Source: Candidatus Hodarchaeota archaeon (GTDB lineage Archaea > Asgardarchaeota > Heimdallarchaeia > Hodarchaeales > Hodarchaeaceae). Taken from it: a stretch of DNA of 64,000 bases. How positions within the stretch are numbered: the first letter of the stretch is position 1; each line of letters opens with the position of its first letter. Below, one piece after another: positions 45,453 through 61,061 of the stretch. Under the pieces are notes generated by a model, which was given only the letters and a program-made list of their open reading frames with translations, made no database searches and was not told where the DNA came from. Made by a program: the position numbers and the translations under genes. The stretch lies in NCBI GenBank assembly GCA_016840035.1, contig JAEOTC010000031.1, positions 15,917 to 79,916 of the forward strand, written 5' to 3'.

Positions 45453-46019
45453 GTGGTTCTTATCTTGTCCGCACCAAACGATATTCTATTTGAAATCCCT
45501 CATTATAGTCAATACAAAATTGTTGTCGCTGGCGACGCATTAGTCGGAAAAACACAACTTGTTTCCGTCTTTACTAAACGTGATTTTGAACATAAACCCA
45601 CTGCTGGAGCTGATATCTCTTTTATTAAGCTTACAAGTCCAAGTGAAGGAAAAAGTACTACTACAGCTATTTTTTGGGATCTCTCTGGACAACCTGCCTT
45701 CCACAAAGTTCGCCCGATTTTCTATGAAGGAGCTCATGCTGTAATCTACGTTTTTGACATTACCAGGGAAAGCACGGTACTTTCTCTTCCCAGTTGGTTT
45801 AAAGAAGTAAAAAAAGTACTTCCAGATAGTCCAGCTGTGTTGATTGGTAATAAAGTAGATTTAGAAGGCGATCGACAAGTTAGTGACGATATTGGACAAA
45901 GATTCGCTGATAAGATGCATGCTCAGTACTTCCCTACATCTGCAATCCAGAATAAAGGTGTGGTTGTAGCTTTTGCATCCGCTATTAGACGTGCTGTTTC
46001 ATATCGAGATCTAAGTTAA
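45453..46019 (+). CDS. Rab-like small GTPase
   Basis: GDALVGKT, PTAGADI, WDLSGQ, FYEGA, NKVD, TSA. Confidence 0.92.
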   Translation: MVLILSAPNDILFEIPHYSQYKIVVAGDALVGKTQLVSVFTKRDFEHKPTAGADISFIKLTSPSEGKSTTTAIFWDLSGQPAFHKVRPIFYEGAHAVIYVFDITRESTVLSLPSWFKEVKKVLPDSPAVLIGNKVDLEGDRQVSDDIGQRFADKMHAQYFPTSAIQNKGVVVAFASAIRRAVSYRDLS

Positions 46020-46030
46020 TGGTGATAATC

Positions 46031-46699
46031 TTAATTTAATTGCTTTATCAATTCAGCAATCCGAGAATTAATATTCTTTAGCCTATTTGAACTTAATAGA
46101 TCAATATAGGAGATATGGTTTTTATCCTCATTCGTGTAATACTTCCAATTGGCTGCATACGGGTCACAAATGAATCCTTTTTTCGCCAATTTTTTTGTTA
46201 ATTGGCTAATAGTCCTTATCAGTTGAAGATCATCCTGTATTGTATCACCCTGAACTTCTTCAACGATTAGAGTAGGAAATTCTCTCTCGAAAGCTTCAAT
46301 TTTGGCAATTCCAATTACTTTTGGGGTGATAAACCGATACTTCGGTATTTCAGGCTCTAAATTGATTTTTTTGAGAGTAGATAAAAAATCATTGATACAA
46401 AAATAATGAATAAGTAATTGTGTGAGATGGCGAGAATAGTAAGGTTTGTACATCAATCTACCAACTTGTTCAGACGGAAAACTCCACCCAAAAAGAACGC
46501 TGGAACCTCCTGGATAAAATCGTGTCCCAATTAGTTTTTTCCCGAGTTTTTCTTTAATTATTTCGATTTTCTCGGGATTAAGAAATTGACCACGTGAGAA
46601 CTGAACAACACTCTCAACTAATTCAAGGTTTTTTTGGAGTGCATAGTAGGAATAGTTATTCTTAAATTCAGGAAGGATGCTAAATGTTGGGGGACACAT
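46031..46699 (-). CDS. atypical protein-kinase-like protein (RIO/Bud32/Kdo-kinase-like fold)
   Basis: In kinase order: Gly loop PGGSSVLF, beta3 Lys LMYKPY, TPKVIG, hinge LIVEEVQG, catalytic loop CDPYAAN (DxxxxN), metal-binding YIDL. Confidence 0.68.
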   Translation of the reverse strand: MCPPTFSILPEFKNNYSYYALQKNLELVESVVQFSRGQFLNPEKIEIIKEKLGKKLIGTRFYPGGSSVLFGWSFPSEQVGRLMYKPYYSRHLTQLLIHYFCINDFLSTLKKINLEPEIPKYRFITPKVIGIAKIEAFEREFPTLIVEEVQGDTIQDDLQLIRTISQLTKKLAKKGFICDPYAANWKYYTNEDKNHISYIDLLSSNRLKNINSRIAELIKQLN

Positions 46700-46711
46700 A
46701 TACTCTTTGAC

Positions 46712-48121
46712 CTATACCCAATCTGCCGAGTCTATTTTTGTTGGAAGATATGTACCAGTCATATATCGCCAGTTCTTACTTGCTAGCGCTTGAATTTCTG
46801 CTTTTTGTTTTGTATTCTTCATGATGAGAATTTGCTTTTCCCATTCAGGTCTGGATTTAACAAAATCCTCTTTCAATAAATCATCAGCACGCTTAATGTC
46901 ATTATCTGTCATTTTAATAAGTACGGATTTTGGAATTTGATATTCTTCAATATCAGAAGGTAATAAGCCTAACCACCGAATATCAGGAACCGCTAGCTCC
47001 ACACTCTCAAAGCTTAATGCTTTACTTCCAATGGAATATACCCTTAAGATATCTAGTCCGTATGGATCAGCATCTAAGAATCCTAAAATTGGAATTTTCA
47101 ACTCTTGGTACATTTTCTTAATAAATAGTCTAGTGGCCATATCAGGTTGTCCAGAGGCGGTAATTAGAATACAAGGTACGTAATTAAAGAATTTATCTTC
47201 TGCTAAATCTTGGAAAACTGCATCCTTCTCAATTACGAGAATAAATTCCGCATCGCTTTCAAAATTATCTACTTGATCTAGCATTGGTGTAATCGCGTGG
47301 CCACCTAATCCCTTTGTACAATCGATTTGATCCCCACCTTCTCTGAATGTCAATCTACCAATGACTTTTCCTTTAGCTGTTGCAATGACATTTAATGAAT
47401 TTCTGGACACACGTAATAATGCTCCAAGATCCTCAATTAATCCGTCTGAAACTCTTTGATTTCCAAATAGGTTCACATCACGATAAAATAGATGCCTTTT
47501 TGTGGCGTGTTTATCTGTTGCAAGAATCTCAGTTACATATCTCATTAATCCAGTTAGTTGAACCACACTTTGAACACTACTCAGATGACGAAATTGTCTA
47601 TCAACAACATTACTTCCCAGTAGCACCATTCGTGAATTATTATCATATCCAACATTCTCAGAACTTCGAGATGGAATCCTAAATGCGGCGTTCTTAGGAT
47701 CTTCAGCTATTTCATCCAAAAATTCCAATGCTACTCTATTTAGACGGGATCTTGCTTCTTCTGCTGGAACATTATCTACTTTTAGGATGGAAACAGGTAA
47801 GTCCACTTCGGAATCGGTAACATCTTCCCTAATTTTTCTAAGTCCCGTTAAGTTAATTTTTCGACGAATCTGTAAAACTACGTCTCCTTCTTCCGTCATA
47901 TCCCACAATTTAGAAATGTTCTGTTTCGTTAGGACTTCAAAGGTTTTTGACTTCTTCAAACCGTAAAAAATCTGTAATTTTTCAGATTTAAGGCCAAGAG
48001 TACTCTTAATAAGCCCAATAATTCCTTGAATTGTATCTTTTTGTTCCATCTCAACTTTTATTACTTTATTTGTAAAAGAATAGTCTTCTAAAACAATATT
48101 ATATTTACGTTTCTCGGACAT
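46712..48121 (-). CDS. top6A: DNA topoisomerase VI subunit A (Spo11 family) with N-terminal extension
   Basis: ATKRHLFY catalytic Tyr motif, Toprim VIEKDAVF, GQPDMATR, DADPYG, KAEIQAL; 469 aa. Confidence 0.93.
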   Translation of the reverse strand: MSEKRKYNIVLEDYSFTNKVIKVEMEQKDTIQGIIGLIKSTLGLKSEKLQIFYGLKKSKTFEVLTKQNISKLWDMTEEGDVVLQIRRKINLTGLRKIREDVTDSEVDLPVSILKVDNVPAEEARSRLNRVALEFLDEIAEDPKNAAFRIPSRSSENVGYDNNSRMVLLGSNVVDRQFRHLSSVQSVVQLTGLMRYVTEILATDKHATKRHLFYRDVNLFGNQRVSDGLIEDLGALLRVSRNSLNVIATAKGKVIGRLTFREGGDQIDCTKGLGGHAITPMLDQVDNFESDAEFILVIEKDAVFQDLAEDKFFNYVPCILITASGQPDMATRLFIKKMYQELKIPILGFLDADPYGLDILRVYSIGSKALSFESVELAVPDIRWLGLLPSDIEEYQIPKSVLIKMTDNDIKRADDLLKEDFVKSRPEWEKQILIMKNTKQKAEIQALASKNWRYMTGTYLPTKIDSADWV

Positions 48122-48122
48122 T

Positions 48123-51100
48123 TCAATTTCCTCCCATGTAAGAGTCTAATTGACCCAGAACATCTGTTTTTCTACGTAAACGTATATTTGATCGTATTTT
48201 TTTGATTTTCGCGGCCGATAATCCATGTGTTTTCTTCAAATCATCATCAGGCCAGTAAATAAAATCAATTATCCTCGTTACCCCTTTCTTTACTAATTCT
48301 TGAGCCGATGGTATTGGAAGCTCTGCTAATTTTACAACAGGTGTTTCTAGGTCAGAGATACAGGCATTCAATAATTTCCCTGGTACTAACTCATTAGGTA
48401 TTAACTCCGCATACCTTTTGCCATAGAAATACAAATCCTCAATATTTGTAATTCCAAACTCACCTAATGGTTCGTAGTATTGCTCAGAGAGGCGGATAAA
48501 ATTCTGGATTGGTGTTCCGAGATTCTTCTTACGTTTCAGGTCTGTCAGATTAACCTTTCTATATTTAGAAATTTCGTATCTCTTAACTTCAAGAATTTCT
48601 GCTAATTCATCCTTATTCCAGAATAAAAACTCTATGATCGAAGTCAACCCCACATTAAATAGGAGTGGGATCTTTTCAGGAAAAGTTTCCTTTACAAGGG
48701 GTAATACCGCTACAGGTTTTTCTAATACACGTTTGACTCCATCGATTGCTGGTATAAGGGATTTTGGGCATCTTTCTAAATCTAGTCTAAAGTACAGATC
48801 AATAACGTTATCAACGCCAAGTTCCTGGATTTTTGAGAGTTGATTGGGAGTGAAAGCTCGCAGAGATGATAGTTTTACCCTGAACTCTGACTCTGTTTTT
48901 TTGTGTGTTAAAATATCTACTAAATTTACCGAGTTCCTGGCAAAATTATATGTTTCCTCGGATAATAAATTAGTTGGTCCTTCTAATTGAGAAAATTCAG
49001 TCTGAATTAGATTATAAACTGATGTAATACCGTTGAACGCAAGTGGAACTACATTAGAGGAGGGTACAAGTGAGTAGTAAGCAAGTGATGAGTTCAAGGC
49101 ATCTCGTAGACCATTTAATCTAGATTTAAATTGGTCAGATGCATCGATTGTTTCGATCTCTATGAAGAGAAGATCTTCTAAAGTATTAACATTATGAGAC
49201 GACAATTCATCAAAATCAATAAACCCAGCCTCAACGACACTAGATATAGATATTTCAGTGTCAAATGTACTTCCTGTGGCCTTAAAATCAAAGCTTTGCT
49301 TAAGCTTATTCACCTCTTCAGTCTTCATCCGTAAAATAGTTGATATTCCATCATTAGGCCCAGAAAACCAAGTGGAGAGAGTATTAATCCCCGAATTTGA
49401 CAATTTTCTTAACTCTGCAACTTGAAAATCTTCTGAAAGTCTGTTTATTGGACTATCAAAAATTTGGAGAAATTCGGTTACTCCTTCTAGTTGGGTAACA
49501 ATTGAACTAAACATAATTAATGATTGTAGTGAAGTAATATTCTTGTCAGAAAGACTTTCGATTGTTTTAGAGGGTAATTGATCCGAGAATTTTGTTAAAG
49601 GTATTGCTTCTTCCTCTAGCTTCTTCATTAGTGTAGCAAATGTAATATCGTTGAGAACAGAGCGTATTTTTGGGAAGGATGCCGAAACAAGTGATGCCAA
49701 ATCTCGATGGGTTAATTTAATGAAGTCACCTACATGGAGCACAGATTTTTCCTTAAGCGGGAAGAACCATTCTACTGGAAGTGAGGGAATAAAACTGATA
49801 GGTATTGATAATAGTTGTTTTAGCTCCTCAAAATTTAAGGTGTCTAACTCCGAGTAAAAAGTTTCAGGAGACTGGTCTAATATCGTAGTCAACTTTTCTA
49901 TGCCAGTGGAATAAGCATCTCTTATTGTATCTATTTTCTTTTGTTTTAATAGTTTTACACGTTCATTATTTGCCCCCAGAACTAGGTATAGGGGAACAGA
50001 TAAGATTGTAAATAGTTCACTCCACAGATCAGATGTAATTCGGATTATTTTCTCTTTTTGTTTTTTCAAGAATAATGTCTCATCAATGCTGGCTAGTAAG
50101 TCATATATGGTTCTTAATTTCTTATCCTTGATTTTGGTTAAATAATCAGATGGAAATTTTATTTTATCCACAGAAAGTCCTTTTAATAAACTTATTATCT
50201 CATTGATTCGAATAGATTCCTGAATTTTCTTTATTCTATCAATTTCAACCCCAGTTTTCTGATTCAAATCCTCCCATGAATCTATCATCAAATCAAAAAT
50301 TGTAAATATGTTCTTTTTATGAAATGCGTTAACTTCAGATGAATTAATGATTGTACTTGTCTCAATAGGCATTTCAAGTACTAATCGAGCATCGAGTATG
50401 GTTTGCCATTCCAGATCACTATCCTCTATCGTCTTAGGAGTAGCTGTATAATAGAGGTCAGCCAAACTTTCGATTCCATATCGGGCAAATTTCCTAACGG
50501 TGTTTTTATCGAATAATGAGATTTTAGTTAAGGGGATCATCTTTTCCTCCTTAATTGTCTTGATATTTGTAAAGTTCAAATCTTGTTTCATTGTTTTCAG
50601 TACTTCTGAATCTATCTCAATTATATTAGTAAGTTGTTCATCTGAAGTGGTTAAAAAGTCGTAAATTGAGATAATATTCTCTTCAGCCAAAGAACGGTTT
50701 TGTTTTCTAGATAGACCTTCGATAATAGAAGCAGAGGTCTCTGTAGACTCCCTCAATTTTAGGAGATTGACTTTCTTCCGAAGATTCTCGACATTCTCTG
50801 GAGGTGTATCCAAAACATTTGACAGTTCGTTTGGCGATGATATCAAAAAGCGTAGAATTGTGTCAAGTCTATAATTAACAAGTTTATCCACATATTTCTG
50901 GGGAATAATACCGTTGAGATAAGTGATAGGGAGATCAAGTGATTCAACACTTTTCTTGACATAGGGAAAATCTAAATCATCTTCCTCATCTAACATATCC
51001 TCATTTGCACTAAAGTACAGATCCTCTACAGTTTCGATACCATAATTAGTTAACGTCGAAATTGTCTTACGATTGTAACCAGCAACTTGTTCTAAGGGCA

Positions 51101-54100
51101 TACCATGCTCTTTGATTGCAACAGCTTGTTTGAGTTCATCTATTTGTTTAAGTGTAACTTTTAGAATGGTTTTTAGCTCATTCGGAGGCCAGTAAATTAG
51201 TTTAATGATCTGATCAATTCCATTATTAGCTAAACCCTCCAAACCATCATGAGAAACCCGTATTTGCGATTTATCAGAACTACCCTGTAATTGAATCATA
51301 GCAATTGGGGTTTCTAGTATTCTTTGATATCGTTCAATTTTTTTCCATTTAACACCCATTACTCCGAATGTTTGCTTATCCGCACAAAAATAAACGCTTT
51401 CTACTGTGGAATATCCCCTAGATTTTAAAGTTTTCATTTCAGCAGCAGTAAATACCCCGAGGTCTATCAGAGCCATTCCTTCGGAAAATTTTGGTATGTT
51501 GTTGGTTAATTCTGATACGTAATCTGCATCCCGGCCTAATATTCCAGCAATTTCATCTGGAGACCATGTGAGAAAATCAATGAATGACTTTATCCCACCA
51601 GCTCTCAAACTATTTACCCATCTTGGCCGAATATGCGATAAACGGGTTATAGGGGTATTAAAGAGCTCAGTTAGCCTATTAGTTTCTTTTTGGCTTAAGT
51701 TTAGATCTTTTATCTCTTCGTCCTCATAAGGAAGACTGTAATATAACTCTTGGACGCTCAGGCCTGATTCAAATAATCTAACCCATGATTTTTGTTCTAG
51801 ATTATTCTTTAGGATGGAAATCGGACGTTTCTTCATCTCGATTTGATTTTGTATTCCCTCGAAAGTAATTTTGCTTTTAATATCCTCAATAATTTTATAA
51901 GAAATCCCTGATTTTCTGTGTAAATCATAATCTGGCCAGATCAGGAAATTAATAACTTTAGATATTCCCAAATGATGCAGTAGCCTATAGTATTTACTGG
52001 GGATTGGTAAATAACATATAGGTTCATTTAATTGCCCTAACATCTCTTTAACTTTATCAGATAGGATTTTGGGCTTGATCTTGTCTTGTGAGACGACTGA
52101 AATCAACTCTTCAAGACACAAAATATCTAAAGACTCTAATTTACCGGCAATAGAATTATCTAGAAGACTAATTGGTGTTCCATAAGTTCGTTTTATTGTT
52201 TCTAATACTAGTGGGTCCATTCCTTCTATTTTTCGTAATTCCTCTGTCGAATGACTAATGAAGTCAAAAATTGTAGATATTCCATTTTGAATTAGAACTC
52301 GTTCTAACTCTAAATCGAGCCAATATGCTCTTTTAATAGGTACTGGATCAAACGCTGCATTAATCTCTTCAAGAATTTCATCTTGTTTAAGTAATATTAA
52401 AGAATCTATCAACCCTCGTACAATGAGTAGCTCCTTTTCATCAGTTAATAGAAAATCAATGAAACCTTGAACATTTAATCTTTCCAAATCAGATATCATT
52501 GATTTCTGAATTCCTGGGATTCTAAATAATGATGATTCATCATTATACGACTGTAGAATCTCCTTCAGTTTATTCTTAGACTGAACAATTAAATTATCTA
52601 TTAGCTCGTTCAATTCTGCAAGCTTTTCAGAGGGCGAATTCAGAAAATCCTTGATTTTCGAGATTTTTCTACCCCGCAATTTGGGTGTAACCTTGTAATC
52701 CATCCAGTCAAACGTCGAAGCACCTATCACCTTTTCTGGATCTATATATTCTCCTTTCACCCCCGCACGAATTTCTTCTTTTGCGTTTTCAATCAAACGA
52801 ATTGCTAATTTTGGCATGGAGGATAGTTTTTCAGGGAACGATACGAAGTAGCCTAAAATAGTACTGATTTTTGCACTTTTCAAAACCTTTTCTATATCGC
52901 TTGTTAACCAGGGGAGAAGATTCAAGGCGAAAGTATCTTCAGAAGCAAAATTGAGAAATTCATCAATTGCTTTAAGCTTTGTCTCGTAAATAAGCTTCTC
53001 AGGAAAATCGTCCACTTCACGAAGCTGTGATGTTGGTGTAGAGAAGAAATCAAATGTGTTTACTATCCATCGTTTATTAAAAGCCTTATGGATCGTGTTA
53101 CTCGTTCTATACTTCGAAAAATCTCGCTCAATTCCTTTAGAGAAGAATTCAAAATCCCGAATTATTGGAGAACGATATGTTTGTTCTTGTTTAGTTACAG
53201 TCTTTCTTACGATTGCATCTATCCTTTCCACTGACATCCCAGTGATAGCATTTAGTTCTGGGACAGGTGTTCGTAAAAAATGGTAGATTGTTTGGATGCC
53301 ATTTTCTACAAGTTTAAGGTGAATATCCATAGGAAGCCATTCACCAACTGTAGATATTTGAGGACTAGGAGGGTACGATCTTCTTACTAGTCGTGGGATG
53401 GCTGATGCAAGCGCTTTCTGTAATTTGGAAATCTCCTCTCCTGAAGATAACAAATAGGGAGAATTTTCGGTTGTTAAAATGTGTGATAAGTTTTGAATTA
53501 CCCTTGGGGCTGCGCTCTCAAATCGAGATTGTCTCTGTCTTTCCCTTCTTTCTCGTTCGGCTCTTCCAAGATGTTGACCTAATCCCCTTGCTAATTTTTT
53601 CAAGACACGGTTGATCTGATTACGAAGTTCATCAACATCTGCGATATACTCTTTGCTTGTCTCAGGAAAAGGAATTTTGGAGGAAACCACTGATACTACA
53701 ATTGCAATAGGTGCTTTGTTGATATTAATCTTATAATTCTTCCAGTTCATTTTCTGAACACATTTAGAGATAATATCATTTCCCGCACCAAACAGTAAGG
53801 GGATTCTATTGGCAAAACGGTAAATTTTTGGACTTGCACCCCTAGCTCCTTCCTCTTTTGTTAAATTCGGACCACCATAAGCTAAAGCTGCCTCTACAAT
53901 AAAAGGATGACCACTATAGGCAGAAATTTCACCAAAAGTAGCTTTTACAAATTGAGGGGATAATTCTTTACTGATCCCCTTTTCCAATAATTCATATCCA
54001 AGGGGAGATAATGAATCGCCACTAGGTCGTTTAAAAGAGAAATATTTCTTTTCTTTCTTCTTTGTTTTATCGCGTTCAGGGACTGTGAATCCTTCATGAA

Positions 54101-55079
54101 CGATTCTTCGAATTGCAGTGGCGCTAAGTTTCTTAGGGTCTGTTTGATGCTCAATCTTAACAAAATCTAAAAAATCACGAGCTGTCTTAGGGCCAATTCC
54201 TTGAAAATGATCTTGTAAGAAAATCTCCATTGTCTCACTGCTAGTGACACTTAATTCCCGTTTAAATTGCGTAATATCTGTTCCCCAAGGATGAACCTTC
54301 GCAATTTGAGGATAGTTTGGCATCTCCTCGACAACACGTTCCAATTCAATTGGAGATTCAGAATCAGGATACTGGATGTAAAAACTAGCATATGGAGTAA
54401 TCATTGCTAGTTGAGAGAAATAGTCGTAAATATAACGAGAAGCGAGATTCCAAGCTCCAGTGAAGGTGACAGATACTTCAGTACCAGATTCATCTATCGC
54501 TTCTGCGGTATTCTGCGGAATTTCACGTTGAGTGAGTATTATCGGCTCATTCTCGGCTAAGTTAATCATCAACTCATGATAACTTGTAAAATCTTCGTTT
54601 ATATATTTGGATTTAATGACTAGAGGTAAGTCCACTGATGACATCGCATTTAATAATACCATCTTCGCCCCTAGACCGAATCGTCCTCGTGATTGTCGAG
54701 CTCCATAATTACTGCCTGTTAGAACTCTACCAAAAAGAGGAGGTATAAATTCTGACTGGATTCCACTCCCATTATCCTTGACAGTTAATCTGAGGAAGTC
54801 TAGTTTTTCAGAGGACTCGAAAGAGCTTATATTGAGTAGCTTTGCGATTTCTTCTTTCTTTAATTTCTTAATTGTGACATGGAGTTCTGGTAAATGACCC
54901 ATCCTTTCTGCAGCATCTAGTCCATTTTCAACTAATTCACGAACACTTGTGAAGACTACCCTCATACTGTTATCGAAACCCGCGATTGCTTTGTTATCCT
55001 GGAAAAAGTCTGCTGCGGATCTTCTTACTACCTTTTCACTAGCAATTCCTTTCTTATTCGACTTTGAGGCAGGTACCAT
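48123..55079 (-). CDS. top6B: giant DNA topoisomerase VI subunit B with ~1750-aa C-terminal repeat region
   Basis: AGFDNSMR, GHKL ELVENGLDA, DNGSG, QSRGRFGLG, SGTEV; H2TH FQGIGPKTA; transducer GHPFIVEA, RFANRIPL, SKEYIA; single 2318-aa ORF. Confidence 0.93.
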   Translation of the reverse strand: MVPASKSNKKGIASEKVVRRSAADFFQDNKAIAGFDNSMRVVFTSVRELVENGLDAAERMGHLPELHVTIKKLKKEEIAKLLNISSFESSEKLDFLRLTVKDNGSGIQSEFIPPLFGRVLTGSNYGARQSRGRFGLGAKMVLLNAMSSVDLPLVIKSKYINEDFTSYHELMINLAENEPIILTQREIPQNTAEAIDESGTEVSVTFTGAWNLASRYIYDYFSQLAMITPYASFYIQYPDSESPIELERVVEEMPNYPQIAKVHPWGTDITQFKRELSVTSSETMEIFLQDHFQGIGPKTARDFLDFVKIEHQTDPKKLSATAIRRIVHEGFTVPERDKTKKKEKKYFSFKRPSGDSLSPLGYELLEKGISKELSPQFVKATFGEISAYSGHPFIVEAALAYGGPNLTKEEGARGASPKIYRFANRIPLLFGAGNDIISKCVQKMNWKNYKININKAPIAIVVSVVSSKIPFPETSKEYIADVDELRNQINRVLKKLARGLGQHLGRAERERRERQRQSRFESAAPRVIQNLSHILTTENSPYLLSSGEEISKLQKALASAIPRLVRRSYPPSPQISTVGEWLPMDIHLKLVENGIQTIYHFLRTPVPELNAITGMSVERIDAIVRKTVTKQEQTYRSPIIRDFEFFSKGIERDFSKYRTSNTIHKAFNKRWIVNTFDFFSTPTSQLREVDDFPEKLIYETKLKAIDEFLNFASEDTFALNLLPWLTSDIEKVLKSAKISTILGYFVSFPEKLSSMPKLAIRLIENAKEEIRAGVKGEYIDPEKVIGASTFDWMDYKVTPKLRGRKISKIKDFLNSPSEKLAELNELIDNLIVQSKNKLKEILQSYNDESSLFRIPGIQKSMISDLERLNVQGFIDFLLTDEKELLIVRGLIDSLILLKQDEILEEINAAFDPVPIKRAYWLDLELERVLIQNGISTIFDFISHSTEELRKIEGMDPLVLETIKRTYGTPISLLDNSIAGKLESLDILCLEELISVVSQDKIKPKILSDKVKEMLGQLNEPICYLPIPSKYYRLLHHLGISKVINFLIWPDYDLHRKSGISYKIIEDIKSKITFEGIQNQIEMKKRPISILKNNLEQKSWVRLFESGLSVQELYYSLPYEDEEIKDLNLSQKETNRLTELFNTPITRLSHIRPRWVNSLRAGGIKSFIDFLTWSPDEIAGILGRDADYVSELTNNIPKFSEGMALIDLGVFTAAEMKTLKSRGYSTVESVYFCADKQTFGVMGVKWKKIERYQRILETPIAMIQLQGSSDKSQIRVSHDGLEGLANNGIDQIIKLIYWPPNELKTILKVTLKQIDELKQAVAIKEHGMPLEQVAGYNRKTISTLTNYGIETVEDLYFSANEDMLDEEDDLDFPYVKKSVESLDLPITYLNGIIPQKYVDKLVNYRLDTILRFLISSPNELSNVLDTPPENVENLRKKVNLLKLRESTETSASIIEGLSRKQNRSLAEENIISIYDFLTTSDEQLTNIIEIDSEVLKTMKQDLNFTNIKTIKEEKMIPLTKISLFDKNTVRKFARYGIESLADLYYTATPKTIEDSDLEWQTILDARLVLEMPIETSTIINSSEVNAFHKKNIFTIFDLMIDSWEDLNQKTGVEIDRIKKIQESIRINEIISLLKGLSVDKIKFPSDYLTKIKDKKLRTIYDLLASIDETLFLKKQKEKIIRITSDLWSELFTILSVPLYLVLGANNERVKLLKQKKIDTIRDAYSTGIEKLTTILDQSPETFYSELDTLNFEELKQLLSIPISFIPSLPVEWFFPLKEKSVLHVGDFIKLTHRDLASLVSASFPKIRSVLNDITFATLMKKLEEEAIPLTKFSDQLPSKTIESLSDKNITSLQSLIMFSSIVTQLEGVTEFLQIFDSPINRLSEDFQVAELRKLSNSGINTLSTWFSGPNDGISTILRMKTEEVNKLKQSFDFKATGSTFDTEISISSVVEAGFIDFDELSSHNVNTLEDLLFIEIETIDASDQFKSRLNGLRDALNSSLAYYSLVPSSNVVPLAFNGITSVYNLIQTEFSQLEGPTNLLSEETYNFARNSVNLVDILTHKKTESEFRVKLSSLRAFTPNQLSKIQELGVDNVIDLYFRLDLERCPKSLIPAIDGVKRVLEKPVAVLPLVKETFPEKIPLLFNVGLTSIIEFLFWNKDELAEILEVKRYEISKYRKVNLTDLKRKKNLGTPIQNFIRLSEQYYEPLGEFGITNIEDLYFYGKRYAELIPNELVPGKLLNACISDLETPVVKLAELPIPSAQELVKKGVTRIIDFIYWPDDDLKKTHGLSAAKIKKIRSNIRLRRKTDVLGQLDSYMGGN
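48170..53365 (-). repeat. about 28 degenerate protein-level tandem repeats (~55-70 aa, HhH-like) within top6B
   Basis: Recurrent pattern xPI..L.........L...GI.TI.DFL......L..I.G.....I..I, e.g. TPVVKLAELPIPSAQELVKKGVTRIIDFIYWPDDDLKKTHGLSAAKIKKI and VPIKRAYWLDLELERVLIQNGISTIFDFISHSTEELRKIEGMDPLVLETI. Counted by eye. Confidence 0.85.
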
Positions 55080-57587
55080 TTAAGCATCTCCCTTGTTAGA
55101 ATTACCACTAGCTATTAACGCAACGGATGAAATTTTCACACCACTCTCCTTTTCCAAGCGCATTAAAGTGACTCCAGAGGTTGCACGGCCTATAGCACGT
55201 ATGTCTTTCATCTGCATCTGTATTAATTTCCCATCATTTGCCACCATTAATAGAAGATCGTCCTCTGTAACACTTTTAACTGCTATCACATCACCATTTC
55301 GTTCTGTTACTTTAATATTGATAACTCCTTTTCCATTACGTCGTGTTACACGATATTTATCAAAAGTAGAGCGTTTTCCATAACCATTTTCGCAAACAGT
55401 TAATAAAGTTCGATTTTCATCGACAATAGCTAAGTCTACAACAGAATCATCTGAATTCAGTCTAATTCCCATAACTCCCAAACTGCTTCTCCCGACTACA
55501 CGCACATCTGACTCTTTGAAACGAATGGCCTTTCCCTTCTTAGTAGCTAAAATGATTCCTCGATTTCCATCTGTGACCTTTGCACCAATTATGTTATCAT
55601 CTTCCCGTAGTTTTTGTGCAATAATCCCAGTAGAGCGAATATTTTCGTATTCTGAAAGAGAAGACTTTTTTATTAACCCATTTTTGGTCGCTAAAATCAG
55701 GTAATGGTCTGGAACGAATTTTTTAACACGAATCATCCCTACAATCTTATCACTCCTATCCATTCTAAGTAAATTAACAATATTAACCCCTTTTGTCACT
55801 CTTTGCCTAGAAATGGGAATTCCAAATCCACGAACACGATAAACACGCCCTTGCACAGTGAAAAATAAGATGGTGTCATGAGTTGAAGCAACAATCATTT
55901 CCTGTAGAAAATCATCCTTTCCGATTTCCATTGATTTGATTCCTTTTCCCCCACGGTGCTGTGAATTATACACATCAGTAGATATTGATTTAATATATCC
56001 ATTTGATGTTAATGTAATCACTATATCTTCTTCTGTGATGAAATCCTCTTCAGTCTTATCTGTCCAATTTTCATATCCATCAGAGTCATCTAAAACAATC
56101 ATTGTTCTTCTAGGATCACCATATTTCGATTTAATAGTATCAATTTCGGATACAATAATCCCCATGATCCGTTCTTCACTGGCTAATATATCTTCATAAT
56201 CCTTTATTGCTTGAAGAACTTCTTTATATTCTTGTAAAATTTTATCCCGATCAAATCGAGTTAAACTTCTGAGTGGTAACGCGAGAATATCCTTCGCTTG
56301 GATTTCAGACAAAGAAAACCTGTTTATCAAAGCGGATTGCGCTTCAGATGCGTTAGAAGATCCTCTGATGAGCTCCACTACATCATCAAGATTCTCAACA
56401 ACAATTTTTCTCCCCTCCAAAATATGTGCTCTCTCTCTGGCCTTCTTTAGATCGAACTCAGTTCTTCTCACAACAACTTCATGCCTATGATCAATGAATT
56501 GAGTAAGAAGCTGCTTCAAATTCAGATTTTTTGGTCTTATCTTGACCTCATCACCAACTTTGGCATCCACAAGAACCATATTCTTGATAGAATAAGAGGT
56601 CTGCATCGGTGTAAATTTAAATAAGCGATTTAACACTACTTCAACATTAGCAGATTGTTTTAGGTTGACAACAATACGTGTACCACGAATGATATTGGAT
56701 TCATTTTTCACGCTACCAATCTCTGGAAATTTTCCTGCTTCCTTCATCCGTTCAATTATATCGACTAAACCACGATGTTCTATCGTATCCTGCCGTTTTA
56801 CTAAATATGGAACCTCAGTAATAATAATGCGAGTTCGATTCTTCTTTTCCTCTATATCGTACTTTGCACGTAAGATTACATTACCAGTTCCAGTATGATA
56901 AGCCCGTTTGATCCCTCCAGTTCCAAAGATTACACCTCCAGTCGGAAAATCAGGACCTGGGATGTACTTCATTAACTCTGATATACTAATATCTGGGTCT
57001 TTTATAACAGCTTTCACTCCGTCTAAAACCTCACTTAGATTATGAGGAGGCATGGAGGTAGCCATTCCCACGGCAATTCCCATAACTCCGTTAATTAGAA
57101 GATTAGGAATTTTTGCTGGAAGCACTACTGGTTCCTTATCTAAACCATCAAAATTGTCAATTAGATCCACAGTATTCTTGTTGATGTCCATTAACAGTTC
57201 ATTTGCGATCTCCGCCATTCTTGCTTCCGTATATCGTTGTGCAGCTGCAGGTTGTCCGTCCATACTGCCAAAATTTCCTTGACCTTGGATCAACGGATAT
57301 CGGAGGGAAAATGGTTGTGCTAATCGTACTAATGCATCGTAAACGGCATTTCCTCCATGAGGATGATATTTTGCACTCGTTTCCCCGATCGTACGTGCAC
57401 ATTTTCTGGGTGGTCTATTATGAGTCAAACCCAAGTTGTGCATAGCCCACAAGATTCGCCTATGTACAGGTTTTAAACCATCTCTTACATGTGGAAGAGC
57501 TCTACTTGTAATTACAGACATCGAATACTCCAAATAGCTTTTGGACATAGTTTTTTCAATAGGAGTGATTCTAATATTACTACTCAT
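55080..57587 (-). CDS. gyrA: DNA gyrase subunit A
   Basis: RALPHVRDGLKPVHRR, AAQRYTEARM (catalytic Tyr), GIAVGMAT, GyrA-box QHRGGKG and C-terminal pinwheel blades; ATG 57587 preferred. Confidence 0.96.
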   Translation of the reverse strand: MSSNIRITPIEKTMSKSYLEYSMSVITSRALPHVRDGLKPVHRRILWAMHNLGLTHNRPPRKCARTIGETSAKYHPHGGNAVYDALVRLAQPFSLRYPLIQGQGNFGSMDGQPAAAQRYTEARMAEIANELLMDINKNTVDLIDNFDGLDKEPVVLPAKIPNLLINGVMGIAVGMATSMPPHNLSEVLDGVKAVIKDPDISISELMKYIPGPDFPTGGVIFGTGGIKRAYHTGTGNVILRAKYDIEEKKNRTRIIITEVPYLVKRQDTIEHRGLVDIIERMKEAGKFPEIGSVKNESNIIRGTRIVVNLKQSANVEVVLNRLFKFTPMQTSYSIKNMVLVDAKVGDEVKIRPKNLNLKQLLTQFIDHRHEVVVRRTEFDLKKARERAHILEGRKIVVENLDDVVELIRGSSNASEAQSALINRFSLSEIQAKDILALPLRSLTRFDRDKILQEYKEVLQAIKDYEDILASEERIMGIIVSEIDTIKSKYGDPRRTMIVLDDSDGYENWTDKTEEDFITEEDIVITLTSNGYIKSISTDVYNSQHRGGKGIKSMEIGKDDFLQEMIVASTHDTILFFTVQGRVYRVRGFGIPISRQRVTKGVNIVNLLRMDRSDKIVGMIRVKKFVPDHYLILATKNGLIKKSSLSEYENIRSTGIIAQKLREDDNIIGAKVTDGNRGIILATKKGKAIRFKESDVRVVGRSSLGVMGIRLNSDDSVVDLAIVDENRTLLTVCENGYGKRSTFDKYRVTRRNGKGVINIKVTERNGDVIAVKSVTEDDLLLMVANDGKLIQMQMKDIRAIGRATSGVTLMRLEKESGVKISSVALIASGNSNKGDA

Positions 57588-57609
57588 CTTTAATACGTCC
57601 CTCAAGTCA

Positions 57610-59631
57610 TTAGATATCTAAATTTTGCACTTCCAACGCGTGAGTCTCGATGAACTCTCGCCTAGGGGCAACTTCCTCTCCCATCAACGTAACGAACATT
57701 CGTTCTGCATCAATAAGATTTTTTCTTGTAACCTGGAGAAGGGTTCGTTTTTCAGGATCCATTACAGTTTCTCGTAGCTGAATGGGATTCATTTCACCAA
57801 GACCCTTGAATCGACTGATCTCAGGTCTACCACCCCAAGTTTGAATAATCTCGTCTCGTTCTTGTTCGGAAAGTACATAAATTTCCTTATTCCCTTTTTT
57901 AACTCGGAATAATGGCGGTTGAGCGATGTAGAGATAACCTTCATCAATTAATTCGGGCATATATCTGAAGAAAAAAGTTAATAGTAAGCAGACGATATGA
58001 TGACCATCGATATCGGCATCCATGAGTAACACAATCTTATGATAACGAACTTTCTCTATTTTGAAATGTTCCTTATAACTCGCTCCAATAGCGCGAATAA
58101 TTTCAAGAATTTCCTTGTTTTTCATTGCCTTTTCTAATCGGGCTTTTTCAACGTTAATGACTTTTCCCCGAAGGGGTAAAATCGCTTGAAACTCTGAAAA
58201 ACGTCCTTCTATTGCACTACCCCCTGCAGAATCACCTTCGACAAGGAATAACTCGCGTTTAGCTGGATCTGAAACAGCGCAATCCACTAATTTTCCTGAT
58301 CCTTTTCCTTGTGTTTTTCTGACAGCTTCTCGAATTTGTCGAAACCTCATTCGAAGAGTTGCAGCAGCTTCACACTTTTCAATAATACTCCTGGAACTAT
58401 CAGGATGTTCATCAAGAAACTTAAGCACATTTTCATATACACAACTCTCTACAACCCCTTTCACTTCGCTATTGCCTAATTTACTTTTTGTTTGGCCTTC
58501 AAATTGAGGATTCATTATTTTTAATGAGACTACGGCAACCAGTCCTTCACGTACATCATTTCCAGTGAATATTGACCTTTTTTCCTTTAATCCCTTCTTT
58601 AGATGAGAATTTTTAATGAGTTGCTCATTCTTCAATACATATGCATTTAATGCTCTTGTAAGGCCTGATTTGAATCCAGATAAGTGTGTTCCCCCATGCC
58701 TTGTATTTATATTATTAGTAAAAGTGTTAATTAAATCTCTCTCTGATCGATCATAAGCTAGGGCAACTTCTACTTGCATTTTCTCAATATTTTCGTCAAA
58801 ATAAGGCATATCATCGTGAACACGATTAGTTACGAGTTGATCAACATAAGCCTTAATTCCCCCATCAAAATGGAAAATCCATTCATTTACTGGCAAATCT
58901 TCGTCAGTAACCTCATCATCAACTTCTACATCAGGACTTTCATCTTGAACAGATTCAGTTTGTGGTTCGGAATCTGAAGGTTTATGCTTTCTTTCATCAA
59001 TTAGTGTTATTGTAAGCCCTTTATTCAAAAAGGCTAATTCACGTAGACGATTACGAATCGTAACAACTTCAATTTGCGTTACTTCGAAGATCTCAGGGTC
59101 TGGAATGAAGGTTATATGAGTACCACTCTCGTAATCCCATTCCTCCTCAATAGTAATGACACCATGAGAAATTGTTTCACCTCTCACGTACTCTTGCATC
59201 TGAACTAAGTTGTCTCTTTTAACTTTTACCTGCATCCAACTAGATAATGCATTCACAACAGCTATCCCAACTCCATGGAGTCCACCACTAACCTTGTAAG
59301 ACTCATGATCAAATTTCCCCCCTGAATGCAGTCGTGTGGTAACAAGTTCCAGAGAAGAAATATTATAATCGGGGTGAATTTCAGTAGGTATTCCCCTACC
59401 ATTATCTTGAATAGTAATTGATTCTTGTCCATGCTCTGTCTGACTTAGTATCACTTTAATACTATCACAAAACCCAGCCATTGCTTCATCGACTGAATTA
59501 TCGACAATTTCCCAAACCAAGTGATGAAGCCCATTTTCATCAATACTTCCAATATACATAGCAGGTCGGCGACGAACCGCTTCAAGACCTTCTAGAACCT
59601 GTATACTACTTGCACCATATTCACTTGACAA
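57610..59631 (-). CDS. gyrB: DNA gyrase subunit B
   Basis: LEGLEAVRRRPAMYIG, EIVDNSVDE, GGLHGVG, VEGDSAGG, PLRGK, DADIDG, FKGLGEM, terminal NLDI. Confidence 0.96.
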   Translation of the reverse strand: MSSEYGASSIQVLEGLEAVRRRPAMYIGSIDENGLHHLVWEIVDNSVDEAMAGFCDSIKVILSQTEHGQESITIQDNGRGIPTEIHPDYNISSLELVTTRLHSGGKFDHESYKVSGGLHGVGIAVVNALSSWMQVKVKRDNLVQMQEYVRGETISHGVITIEEEWDYESGTHITFIPDPEIFEVTQIEVVTIRNRLRELAFLNKGLTITLIDERKHKPSDSEPQTESVQDESPDVEVDDEVTDEDLPVNEWIFHFDGGIKAYVDQLVTNRVHDDMPYFDENIEKMQVEVALAYDRSERDLINTFTNNINTRHGGTHLSGFKSGLTRALNAYVLKNEQLIKNSHLKKGLKEKRSIFTGNDVREGLVAVVSLKIMNPQFEGQTKSKLGNSEVKGVVESCVYENVLKFLDEHPDSSRSIIEKCEAAATLRMRFRQIREAVRKTQGKGSGKLVDCAVSDPAKRELFLVEGDSAGGSAIEGRFSEFQAILPLRGKVINVEKARLEKAMKNKEILEIIRAIGASYKEHFKIEKVRYHKIVLLMDADIDGHHIVCLLLTFFFRYMPELIDEGYLYIAQPPLFRVKKGNKEIYVLSEQERDEIIQTWGGRPEISRFKGLGEMNPIQLRETVMDPEKRTLLQVTRKNLIDAERMFVTLMGEEVAPRREFIETHALEVQNLDI

Positions 59632-59882
59632 AATTTAACACCGATGGTCCCGAAAAATGAAAATAAACACAAATTCAACATGTGTTTTTTTTGAAATGAG
59701 TAAAAATTACATTTAACTCAGTTATTCGGTGAAGAACTCCCTATTTAAATCTTCTTATAACAATTCATCCATTTTTTTGGCTAATTACTTGCGTCTAATT
59801 CAACCAAAACTGATTTTATTTATTTTATTACGAATAAATGGAAACTGTTCAATCAAAAATCTCATAAACGAAAAAAAAACTA

Positions 59883-60620
59883 CTATTGACCTAGAAATAA
59901 CCTAGCACATAAAGATTCATCGAGATCAGCTGCTTTCAAGGCATCACAAGTCTTTTCGATTTCATATTTTACTCTGAAATTTTGTACTTTTAATTGGGTC
60001 TCAGAGACTTTTACGATACTATAACTAGCATCAGGATTTTCATCTCTGGGTTGTCCAACACTCCCCGGATTAACCACATAACGGTTATTGTGTTCATATT
60101 GAAACGCCCAATGTGAATGTCCTATGGCGATAAAATTCCAAACATCAAGCCATCCATCTAATCTAACCTTTTGTTCATCTAATGGTTCATTATTCCAGTA
60201 AGGAAATAAAAAATACTCCCATTTTTTGTCTGGAGTTCCATGTACAAATAAAAACTCATTTTCATTAAAATAGAGAACCTTTTTTGTTCTCAATCTTTTA
60301 AGAAATCGAAACTGTTCCTCGTTACCTTCCTTCAGTAAAACGTTTCGAGTCCACTTCAGCGATCGTACTGCTGTTTTATTAAACCATTTTATTCGTTTTT
60401 CAAAGTTGACGGCAGTGATTGCAGAATCGTGGTTTCCTTGGATTACAATATCGCATCGATTTTTAACTTTATTAATACATTCTATCGGATTCGCATAATA
60501 CCCCACAATGTCTCCCAAGCATACAACGTGATCCATTGTTCCACGTTTTCGAAGATCTTTAAAAACAGAGTTTAACGCTTCTAAATTACCATGAATATCA
60601 GAAATTATAGCGATTTTCAA
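59883..60620 (-). CDS. metallophosphoesterase (calcineurin-like)
   Basis: SDIHGN, GDIVGY, GNHD, VHG, GHSH, NPGSVGQPRD. Confidence 0.92.
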   Translation of the reverse strand: MKIAIISDIHGNLEALNSVFKDLRKRGTMDHVVCLGDIVGYYANPIECINKVKNRCDIVIQGNHDSAITAVNFEKRIKWFNKTAVRSLKWTRNVLLKEGNEEQFRFLKRLRTKKVLYFNENEFLFVHGTPDKKWEYFLFPYWNNEPLDEQKVRLDGWLDVWNFIAIGHSHWAFQYEHNNRYVVNPGSVGQPRDENPDASYSIVKVSETQLKVQNFRVKYEIEKTCDALKAADLDESLCARLFLGQ

Positions 60621-60650: not shown

Positions 60651-61061
60651 TTAACTACTACGGTTACGCAGTGATTGAACTAATTCCTCTTTTTGAGATT
60701 CAAGCGTGGTTATCTTTTCCTCTTGTTCTTTAAGTTTTTCTGAAAGTTGTTTCTTATCTAAGGCTAAAAGATCAACTTCTCGTTGTAACGATACAACGCG
60801 ATTTTCGGATGTCTGTCTCTGGGATTCAAATTCGGTTTTCTGATCACCTAGCTTTTTCTGAAGTTCAGAAAGTTGATTCCCCAGATCATCATATTTTCTT
60901 TGAATCTCGTCAACTTGTTGTTTGAAAGTGGCTCTTTCTGTGATAAGCTTATCCAGTTGATTAATTAAAGGTTCTACCTTTTTAAAAGCCTCTTGTACAT
61001 TGGTTTTTATTGCATTAAGTTCTGAGTTCATATCATCGAATGTATTTGACATTTCTACCAC
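60651..61061 (-). CDS. short coiled-coil protein
   Basis: 136 aa of continuous heptad-like E/Q/K/L-rich sequence. Confidence 0.75.
   Translation of the reverse strand: MVEMSNTFDDMNSELNAIKTNVQEAFKKVEPLINQLDKLITERATFKQQVDEIQRKYDDLGNQLSELQKKLGDQKTEFESQRQTSENRVVSLQREVDLLALDKKQLSEKLKEQEEKITTLESQKEELVQSLRNRSS

Follow-up and report, generated by a model that had tools for sequence, protein, structure and literature searches.

A gyrB-gyrA-top6B-top6A gene cluster of Hodarchaeales as a probable operon for gyrase and topoisomerase VI

We analyzed a 64,000-nucleotide (nt) stretch of a Candidatus Hodarchaeota archaeon genome (contig JAEOTC010000031.1, positions 15,917 to 79,916; hereafter the window), in which the genes for DNA gyrase and topoisomerase VI (Topo VI) lie next to each other at window positions 46031-59631. 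The map of open reading frames (ORFs) showed five successive ORFs on the minus strand of this interval: gyrB, gyrA, top6B, top6A, and an ORF encoding 222 amino acids (aa), designated ORF5. Pfam searches confirmed the four topoisomerase subunits GyrB, GyrA, Top6B and Top6A, all with intact catalytic motifs. The features of the cluster, including the helix-hairpin-helix (HhH) repeats of Top6B and the mean predicted local distance difference test score (pLDDT) of one modeled domain, are as follows.

59632..59768, minus strand: putative promoter and 5' leader; TATA-like TTTAAATA at 59742-59749, then a conserved leader of ~110 nt
57610..59631, minus strand: gyrB, 673 aa, TTG start
55080..57587, minus strand: gyrA, 835 aa from the ATG at 57587; ATGAGTAG start conserved in relatives
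48123..55079, minus strand: top6B, 2318 aa; GHKL ATPase and transducer core (residues 1 to ~540), then a long C-terminal tail
48201..53333, minus strand: HhH repeat array of Top6B, residues 583-2293; ~24 units at a spacing of ~60-65 residues
46712..48121, minus strand: top6A, 469 aa; N-terminal extension of ~100 aa, then the 5Y-CAP and Toprim core
47822..48121, minus strand: predicted beta-grasp (ubiquitin-like/PB1-like) domain of Top6A, residues 1 to ~100; AlphaFold2 mean pLDDT 77
46031..46699, minus strand: ORF5, 222 aa; minimal protein-kinase-like fold, predicted

The junction sequences gave a spacer of 22 nt between the gyrB stop codon (TAA) and the gyrA ATG at 57587, and a spacer of 0 nt between gyrA and top6B, where the gyrA TAA (55080-55082) directly abuts the top6B ATG at 55079 (TAAATG). 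A single nucleotide (A) separates the top6B TGA (48123-48125) from the top6A ATG at 48121, and 12 nt separate the top6A TAG (46712-46714) from the ORF5 ATG at 46699. An earlier, sequence-only reading of this DNA had described five co-oriented genes with near-zero gaps, and each of its gap figures (22, 0, 1 and 12 nt) was reproduced from the ORF layout and the junctions.

GyrB matched HATPase_c, DNA_gyraseB (2.3e-49), Toprim and DNA_gyraseB_C in Pfam, and carried the motifs EIVDNSVDE (residues 41-49), DNGRGIP, GGLHGVG, QTKSKLG, EGDSAGG (465-471) and DADIDGHH (538-545). Its TTG start was kept in all 12 genomes compared, and the start context was conserved. GyrA matched DNA_topoisoIV (3.7e-147) and six DNA_gyraseA_C blades, with the catalytic-tyrosine motif AQRYTEA at ORF residues 122-128 and a GyrA-box-like sequence, QHRGGKG, at ORF residues 549-555. 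The latter departs at one position from the GyrA-box consensus, Q(R/K)RGG(R/K)G. By domains and motifs, including the pinwheel and the GyrA box that separate gyrase from topoisomerase IV, the two proteins are assigned to gyrase, and supercoiling activity is predicted.

For Top6B, Pfam matches to Topo-VIb_trans (1e-50) and HATPase_c were found together with the Bergerat-fold motifs ELVENGLDA, DNGSGI and GRFGLGAK. Top6A matched TP6A_N and TOP6A-Spo11_Toprim (2.4e-63). A phmmer search against PDB sequences matched it to S. shibatae Top6A (2zbk) at 1e-60, with the alignment starting at residue 114; Tyr213 in its FYRD motif aligned with the catalytic tyrosine of 2zbk, and the motifs IEKDAV and DADPYG were present. 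With a Bergerat ATPase and transducer on one subunit and the 5Y-CAP tyrosine and Toprim acidic residues on the other, the pair is classified from its sequence as a Topo VI (type IIB, A2B2). In the assembly, which is 87% complete, one gyrB, one top6B and one topoisomerase IA gene were detected, and a topoisomerase IB gene was not. Because gyrB and top6B each occur once, the cluster accounts for all of the type II topoisomerase activity detected in the assembly.

Thirteen further loci of the same genus (L002-L014) were fetched and their genes mapped. All 13 showed gyrB-gyrA-top6B-top6A-ORF5 in the same order and orientation; the sequence of L014 begins within gyrA, at the end of its contig. Identity to the window was 71-92% for GyrA and 58-86% for Top6B. 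Across these loci the gyrA-top6B gap ranged from -4 to 18 nt and the top6B-top6A gap from -4 to 21 nt. In a second genus of the order (genome G079), an intein-bearing gyrB, gyrA and top6B were found, with an 18-nt gap between gyrA and top6B, after which the contig ends. The recurrence of the locus in 13 genomes of the genus and, in part, in a second genus shows that the arrangement is not a product of chance. Synteny in relatives, which the sequence-only reading had named as a check on its proposed operon, was borne out for the full gene order in the genus and for gyrB-gyrA-top6B in G079. As judged from gene layout, the four topoisomerase genes, closely spaced, conserved and co-oriented as one unit, bear the hallmarks of co-transcription.

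Signals for transcription and translation were located around the gene starts. The upstream boundary of the cluster is a 251-nt AT-rich spacer, beyond which lies a metallophosphoesterase gene. The gyrB-proximal half of this spacer was ~90% identical in five genomes, and the distal half had diverged. The TATA-like TTTAAATA within it is the sole sense-strand match to the archaeal TATA consensus, TTTAWATA, in positions 46031-59900 (13.9 kb). Over the whole window this motif was under-represented (9 matches against 19 expected from shuffles); few of the 9 matches had the usual spacing to a start codon, and the motif is not validated as the general promoter signal of the genome. In the genomes compared, no TATA-like element was found within 60 nt upstream of top6B or top6A. 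A Shine-Dalgarno-like GGTG lies 8 nt before the gyrB TTG start, and GGAGG, GGGAG or GGTGG was found 5-10 nt before the starts of gyrA, top6B and top6A in nearly all genomes. The leader (59632-59721, minus strand) contains two inverted repeats, TGAGT-N15-ACTCA and ACACA-N9-TGTGT, both kept in five genomes. RNAalifold detected no compensatory changes or covariation for these repeats in the five genomes, and we claim no RNA structure; they could be operator sites or RNA hairpins.

The distribution of the linkage was surveyed by searching for the Top6B transducer and GyrA in 400 genomes of the phylum, with a repeated search of the class and a further search of five closed genomes and one large family (f20). 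Gyrase was found in 208 of the 400 genomes, or about half. Among the gyrase-bearing Asgard lineages tested, gyrA and top6B were adjacent in none outside the genus of the window and G079. The distance between the two genes was 440 kb in the closed genomes G015 and G016, 75 kb in G055 and 29 kb in G056, and 0.16-3.2 Mb in the five closed genomes of families f19-f21. In f20, gyrA and top6B were on the same contig in none of the ~90 genomes for which both coordinates were listed. The joining of the gyrBA and top6BA pairs appears from these gene positions to be an event at the level of the order, and one that is not universal even within it.

The extra domains on both Topo VI subunits, which the sequence-only reading had reported, proved to be real. 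An iterated search of Top6B against itself with a hidden Markov model identified 24 HhH-like units in the tail, and the whole-protein Pfam scores (RAD51D_N, 9e-22; HHH_5, 3.6e-13) agree with an HhH array. A phmmer search of the tail against PDB sequences returned no match. The long frame recurred at 2311-2338 aa in 13 independent assemblies, one of them a closed genome of 4.9 Mb. At the N terminus of Top6A, Pfam gave no match for residues 1-185, and phmmer gave weak matches to polyubiquitin for residues 15-71. The PDB matches obtained with Foldseek for the model of the extension were all beta-grasp folds (PB1, the UBL of USP15, ubiquitin), with target-normalised TM-scores of up to 0.78. No Gly-Gly motif was found at the end of this domain, which continues in-frame into the Top6A core, so that there is no free terminus for conjugation. 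The HhH tail is probably a long DNA tether, DNA binding being predicted, and the beta-grasp domain is probably a docking module.

When compared with archaeal Topo VI enzymes (S. shibatae 2ZBK, M. mazei 2Q2E and M. jannaschii Top6A 1D3Y), the window's enzyme shares the core domains, the catalytic motifs and the adjacency of top6B and top6A, but differs in its Top6B tail of ~1750 aa with ~24 HhH units, where a short helix or an Ig-like C-terminal domain of ~100 aa is known, and in the ~100-aa beta-grasp domain at the N terminus of Top6A. Topoisomerase V of Methanopyrus kandleri, a type IC enzyme, also has a long C-terminal array of tandem (HhH)2 DNA-binding domains. Its likeness to Top6B is limited to the HhH array, and the catalytic cores are unrelated (type IC versus type IIB).

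Neither extra domain follows the operon. Homologous HhH units were detected in Top6B of G307, G015, G055 and G082, the N-terminal extension of Top6A also aligned in G015 and G055, and in other families of the class the Top6B frames were ~2200-4300 aa long. In both long-Top6B loci examined in detail (G015 and G055), gyrase is far away. In the gyrase-less family f28, gyrA was found in none of five genomes, two of them 100% complete; one of these two, G307, encodes a Top6B of 2293 aa (L030:3938-10816), in which at least 14 homologous HhH units were detected, and a Top6A of 473 aa. The sequence-only reading had suggested that the tail and the ubiquitin-like fusion might occur only where gyrase adjoins. 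This was rejected, since both were found with gyrase distant (75 kb in G055, 440 kb in G015) or absent (G307). A weaker link, in which the tail would simply go with having a gyrase, was rejected as well, by the giant Top6B of G307. The HhH tail and the beta-grasp domain are therefore not bound to the operon; by their distribution they appear to be older, class-wide features independent of it. The giant HhH-tailed Top6B is the most striking object of the interval, but it is a class-wide trait and separate from the operon question. According to a published rule, C-terminal extensions of Top6B are confined to archaea that encode gyrase and never occur in gyrase-less ones (PMC9348778); the giant Top6B of G307 qualifies this rule. 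A second gyrase-less family of the class, f7 (e.g., L032 and G082), carries two Top6B copies of ~500 and ~1110 aa; only 3 HhH units occur in the longer copy, and the Top6A that goes with it (402 aa) has a much shorter N-terminal region than the one in the window.

ORF5 gave no Pfam match (E<=1), and its profile gave only chance-level matches against PDB sequences. Its AlphaFold2 model had a mean pLDDT of 88.7, and the structures matched by Foldseek and VIA were nearly all protein-kinase-like (Cdc7, Rio1/2, PRPK/Bud32, APH(3') and OspG). The Foldseek probability was 1.0 to Cdc7, Rio2 and CK2; the VIA Z values, to PRPK, Rio, APH and OspG, were only moderate (7-8.7). The order of its invariant residues (G64, G65, S67, K85, D179, N184 and D200) fits a Gly-rich loop, a beta-3 Lys, a D-x4-N catalytic loop and a metal-binding Asp, and no conserved alpha-C Glu was found among the homologues. 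ORF5 resembles Bud32/PRPK, RIO1/RIO2, OspG and APH(3') in predicted fold, size and the order of conserved residues, but differs from them in lacking a Pfam or PDB-profile family match and a conserved alpha-C Glu, and its Z values are only 7-8.7.

Homologues of ORF5 were found only in the family of the window and its sister family (0 of 59 genomes in other families of the class); all 63 are annotated as 'hypothetical' or are unnamed, and most of the named ones come from metagenome-assembled genomes of the Hodarchaeales type. The homologues diverge fast (41-83% identity). The same genome holds two distant paralogues with 25-26% identity (G000:C168:3288-3944, plus strand, and G000:C268:1925-2482, minus strand), so that ORF5 is one member of a small family specific to the lineage. 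In the window and in the 13 fetched loci it comes after top6A, at a gap that varies from 6 to 225 nt. In L006 and L009 it lies 89-202 nt downstream of top6A, with a TTTTATAA element ~30 nt before its ATG, and an independent promoter is therefore suggested. A complex prediction for ORF5 with full-length Top6A gave no answer (score 0.00), which is evidence neither way. The idea that ORF5 is part of a Topo VI module is weakened, since ORF5 does not adjoin top6A in G015 or G055 and is missing from all other families of the class. Of the claim that a kinase gene belongs to the operon, the kinase-like fold stands as a prediction; firm membership does not, because ORF5 is an order-restricted orphan with variable spacing and, in some species, an apparent promoter of its own. 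ORF5 may be co-transcribed in this species, but structure prediction and distribution describe it best as a lineage-specific kinase-like neighbor of uncertain relevance, loosely coupled and not a fixed part of the unit.

The genes that flank the cluster are kept across the genus:

60651-61061, minus strand: small coiled-coil protein gene, upstream of the metallophosphoesterase gene
59883-60620, minus strand: calcineurin-like metallophosphoesterase gene, immediately upstream of the cluster
45453-46019, plus strand: Ras/Roc-family small GTPase gene, converging on ORF5, with the two stop codons 11 nt apart

A metallophosphoesterase gene also lies upstream of gyrB in G079.

The sequence-only reading had taken it that the two enzymes, in archaea with both, do not generally form one coupled unit. 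This is too strong. Berthon et al. (2008, PMC2643942) reported that the genes for both enzymes are contiguous in all haloarchaea and in Methanosarcinales, and proposed their co-regulation, and the contiguity was restated by Forterre and Gadelle (2009, PMC2647321) and by Villain et al. (2022, PMC9348778). The last study described the euryarchaeal clusters as transcribed from divergent promoters and cited the induction of both enzymes by novobiocin in Halobacterium. No mention of the Hodarchaeales arrangement was found in the literature searched. As in the clusters of Halobacteria and Methanosarcinales, four type II topoisomerase genes stand side by side in a gyrase-bearing archaeon, and the proposed rationale is the same, namely co-regulation after the acquisition of a bacterial gyrase. 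Unlike those clusters, whose orientation we take from the published description, the present one is co-directional, has gaps of 0-22 nt and belongs to an Asgard lineage. With the gyrBA operon of archaea and many bacteria (PMC9348778) it shares gyrB before gyrA, a short gap, a GyrA box and a six-blade C-terminal domain, but here both Topo VI genes are added downstream without intergenic space. The arrangement is therefore a new layout of a linkage known in other archaea, and not a new kind of system. Because related Heimdallarchaeia keep the gyrBA and top6BA pairs apart, the linkage in Hodarchaeales probably arose independently of the euryarchaeal one.

We read the four genes as a true operon through which gyrase and Topo VI are co-regulated, a co-directional version of the euryarchaeal linkage that probably arose on its own, and put the probability of this at about 0.7. 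One promoter upstream of gyrB would drive the only two type II topoisomerases of this archaeon from a single polycistronic mRNA of ~13 kb, on which internal translation would be coupled or led by Shine-Dalgarno motifs. The levels of gyrase, which supercoils DNA negatively, and of Topo VI, which decatenates and relaxes it, would then change in parallel, probably in answer to DNA relaxation. By analogy, the co-regulation would be the one suggested for the divergent clusters of haloarchaea and Methanosarcinales, and the linkage would have arisen through a rearrangement inside Hodarchaeales.

Several observations weigh against the operon and leave room for another account, in which the gyrBA and top6BA pairs were juxtaposed neutrally and are still separate transcription units, with a promoter for top6BA concealed in the last part of gyrA, and in which they stay linked only through slow change in gene order within this genus. 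The flanking metallophosphoesterase, coiled-coil and Ras-like GTPase genes are as syntenic across the genus as the cluster itself, so that conservation within the genus alone is no proof of selection on the linkage. In one genome of the sister family, G078, the 3.4 kb preceding top6B contain no gyrase gene, and gyrA is on another contig; because G078 and other Heimdallarchaeia have separate loci, the linkage is dispensable, and it is likewise missing from all other gyrase-bearing Asgard lineages tested. Real archaeal promoters often deviate from TTTAWATA, promoters may lie inside coding sequence, and in an AT-rich genome (~36% GC) weak TATA-like elements could be hidden there. However, gaps of 0-18 nt or 4-nt overlaps persist while Top6B falls to 58% identity, every internal start has a Shine-Dalgarno-like motif of the kind typical of internal operon genes, the cluster contains no sense-strand consensus TATA, and the arrangement is also present in a second genus, whose gyrB carries an intein. 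Neutral juxtaposition is therefore judged unlikely, though it retains some weight beside the operon.

The sequence-only reading had gone further than an operon and proposed an integrated topology-control system. In such a system gyrase and Topo VI would form a physically or functionally integrated machine, with the HhH tail, the beta-grasp domain and the ORF5 kinase as its adaptors or regulators. The tight translational coupling at the gyrA/top6B junction (TAAATG), the constant position of ORF5 after top6A in the genus, and its kinase-like fold with conserved catalytic-type residues would suit this idea. Yet the tail and the beta-grasp domain are the same in kind where gyrase is distant (G015 and G055) or absent (G307), and ORF5 is missing from the other families of the class, has paralogues, evolves fast and possesses its own TTTTATAA element in L006 and L009. 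We regard such a machine as highly improbable. The same low standing is given to the view that the operon fusion amounts to functional coupling, with gyrase and an HhH-tethered Topo VI as one module, the beta-grasp domain and ORF5 for docking or control, and the gyrB leader as a supercoiling-sensing switch. What stood of the earlier proposal is the set of co-transcription hallmarks and the extra domains of both Topo VI subunits; integration beyond co-expression found no positive support.

Archaea that acquired a bacterial gyrase have to reconcile it with an ancestral Topo VI. In the literature, the case for co-regulation is built on contiguous genes in two groups of Euryarchaeota. The linkage described here is a second one, tighter and apparently independent, and such convergence makes the case stronger. 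In Hodarchaeales this linkage is co-directional with near-zero gaps, and it lies in an Asgard order often placed closest to eukaryotes. These archaea offer a clean test case for co-regulation, since all of the cell's type II topoisomerase activity should depend on one promoter. Two tempting inferences are corrected as well: gyrase adjacency does not account for the giant HhH tail or the ubiquitin-like domain of Topo VI, and a giant Top6B is not confined to gyrase-bearing lineages.

Further gyrase genes were observed outside the window. A second gyrA is present on the 3.8-kb contig C17 of the same assembly (L027:1-3778). An extra ~450 aa, probably an intein, are inserted close to its catalytic region, and it is 41-62% identical to the GyrA of the genus. 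It is without a partner, as no second gyrB was found in the assembly, and C17 is probably a stray, mis-binned contig from another Heimdallarchaeon. The gyrase copies in the window are intein-free. The gyrase subunits of several related Heimdallarchaeia are apparently intein-bearing, with Pfam matches split at profile positions 41 and 93; examples of this type are the 1237-aa GyrB of G079 (L015:764-4477) and the 1269-aa GyrA of G015 (L020:6283-10092), and many gyrA open frames of relatives encode 1270-1726 aa.

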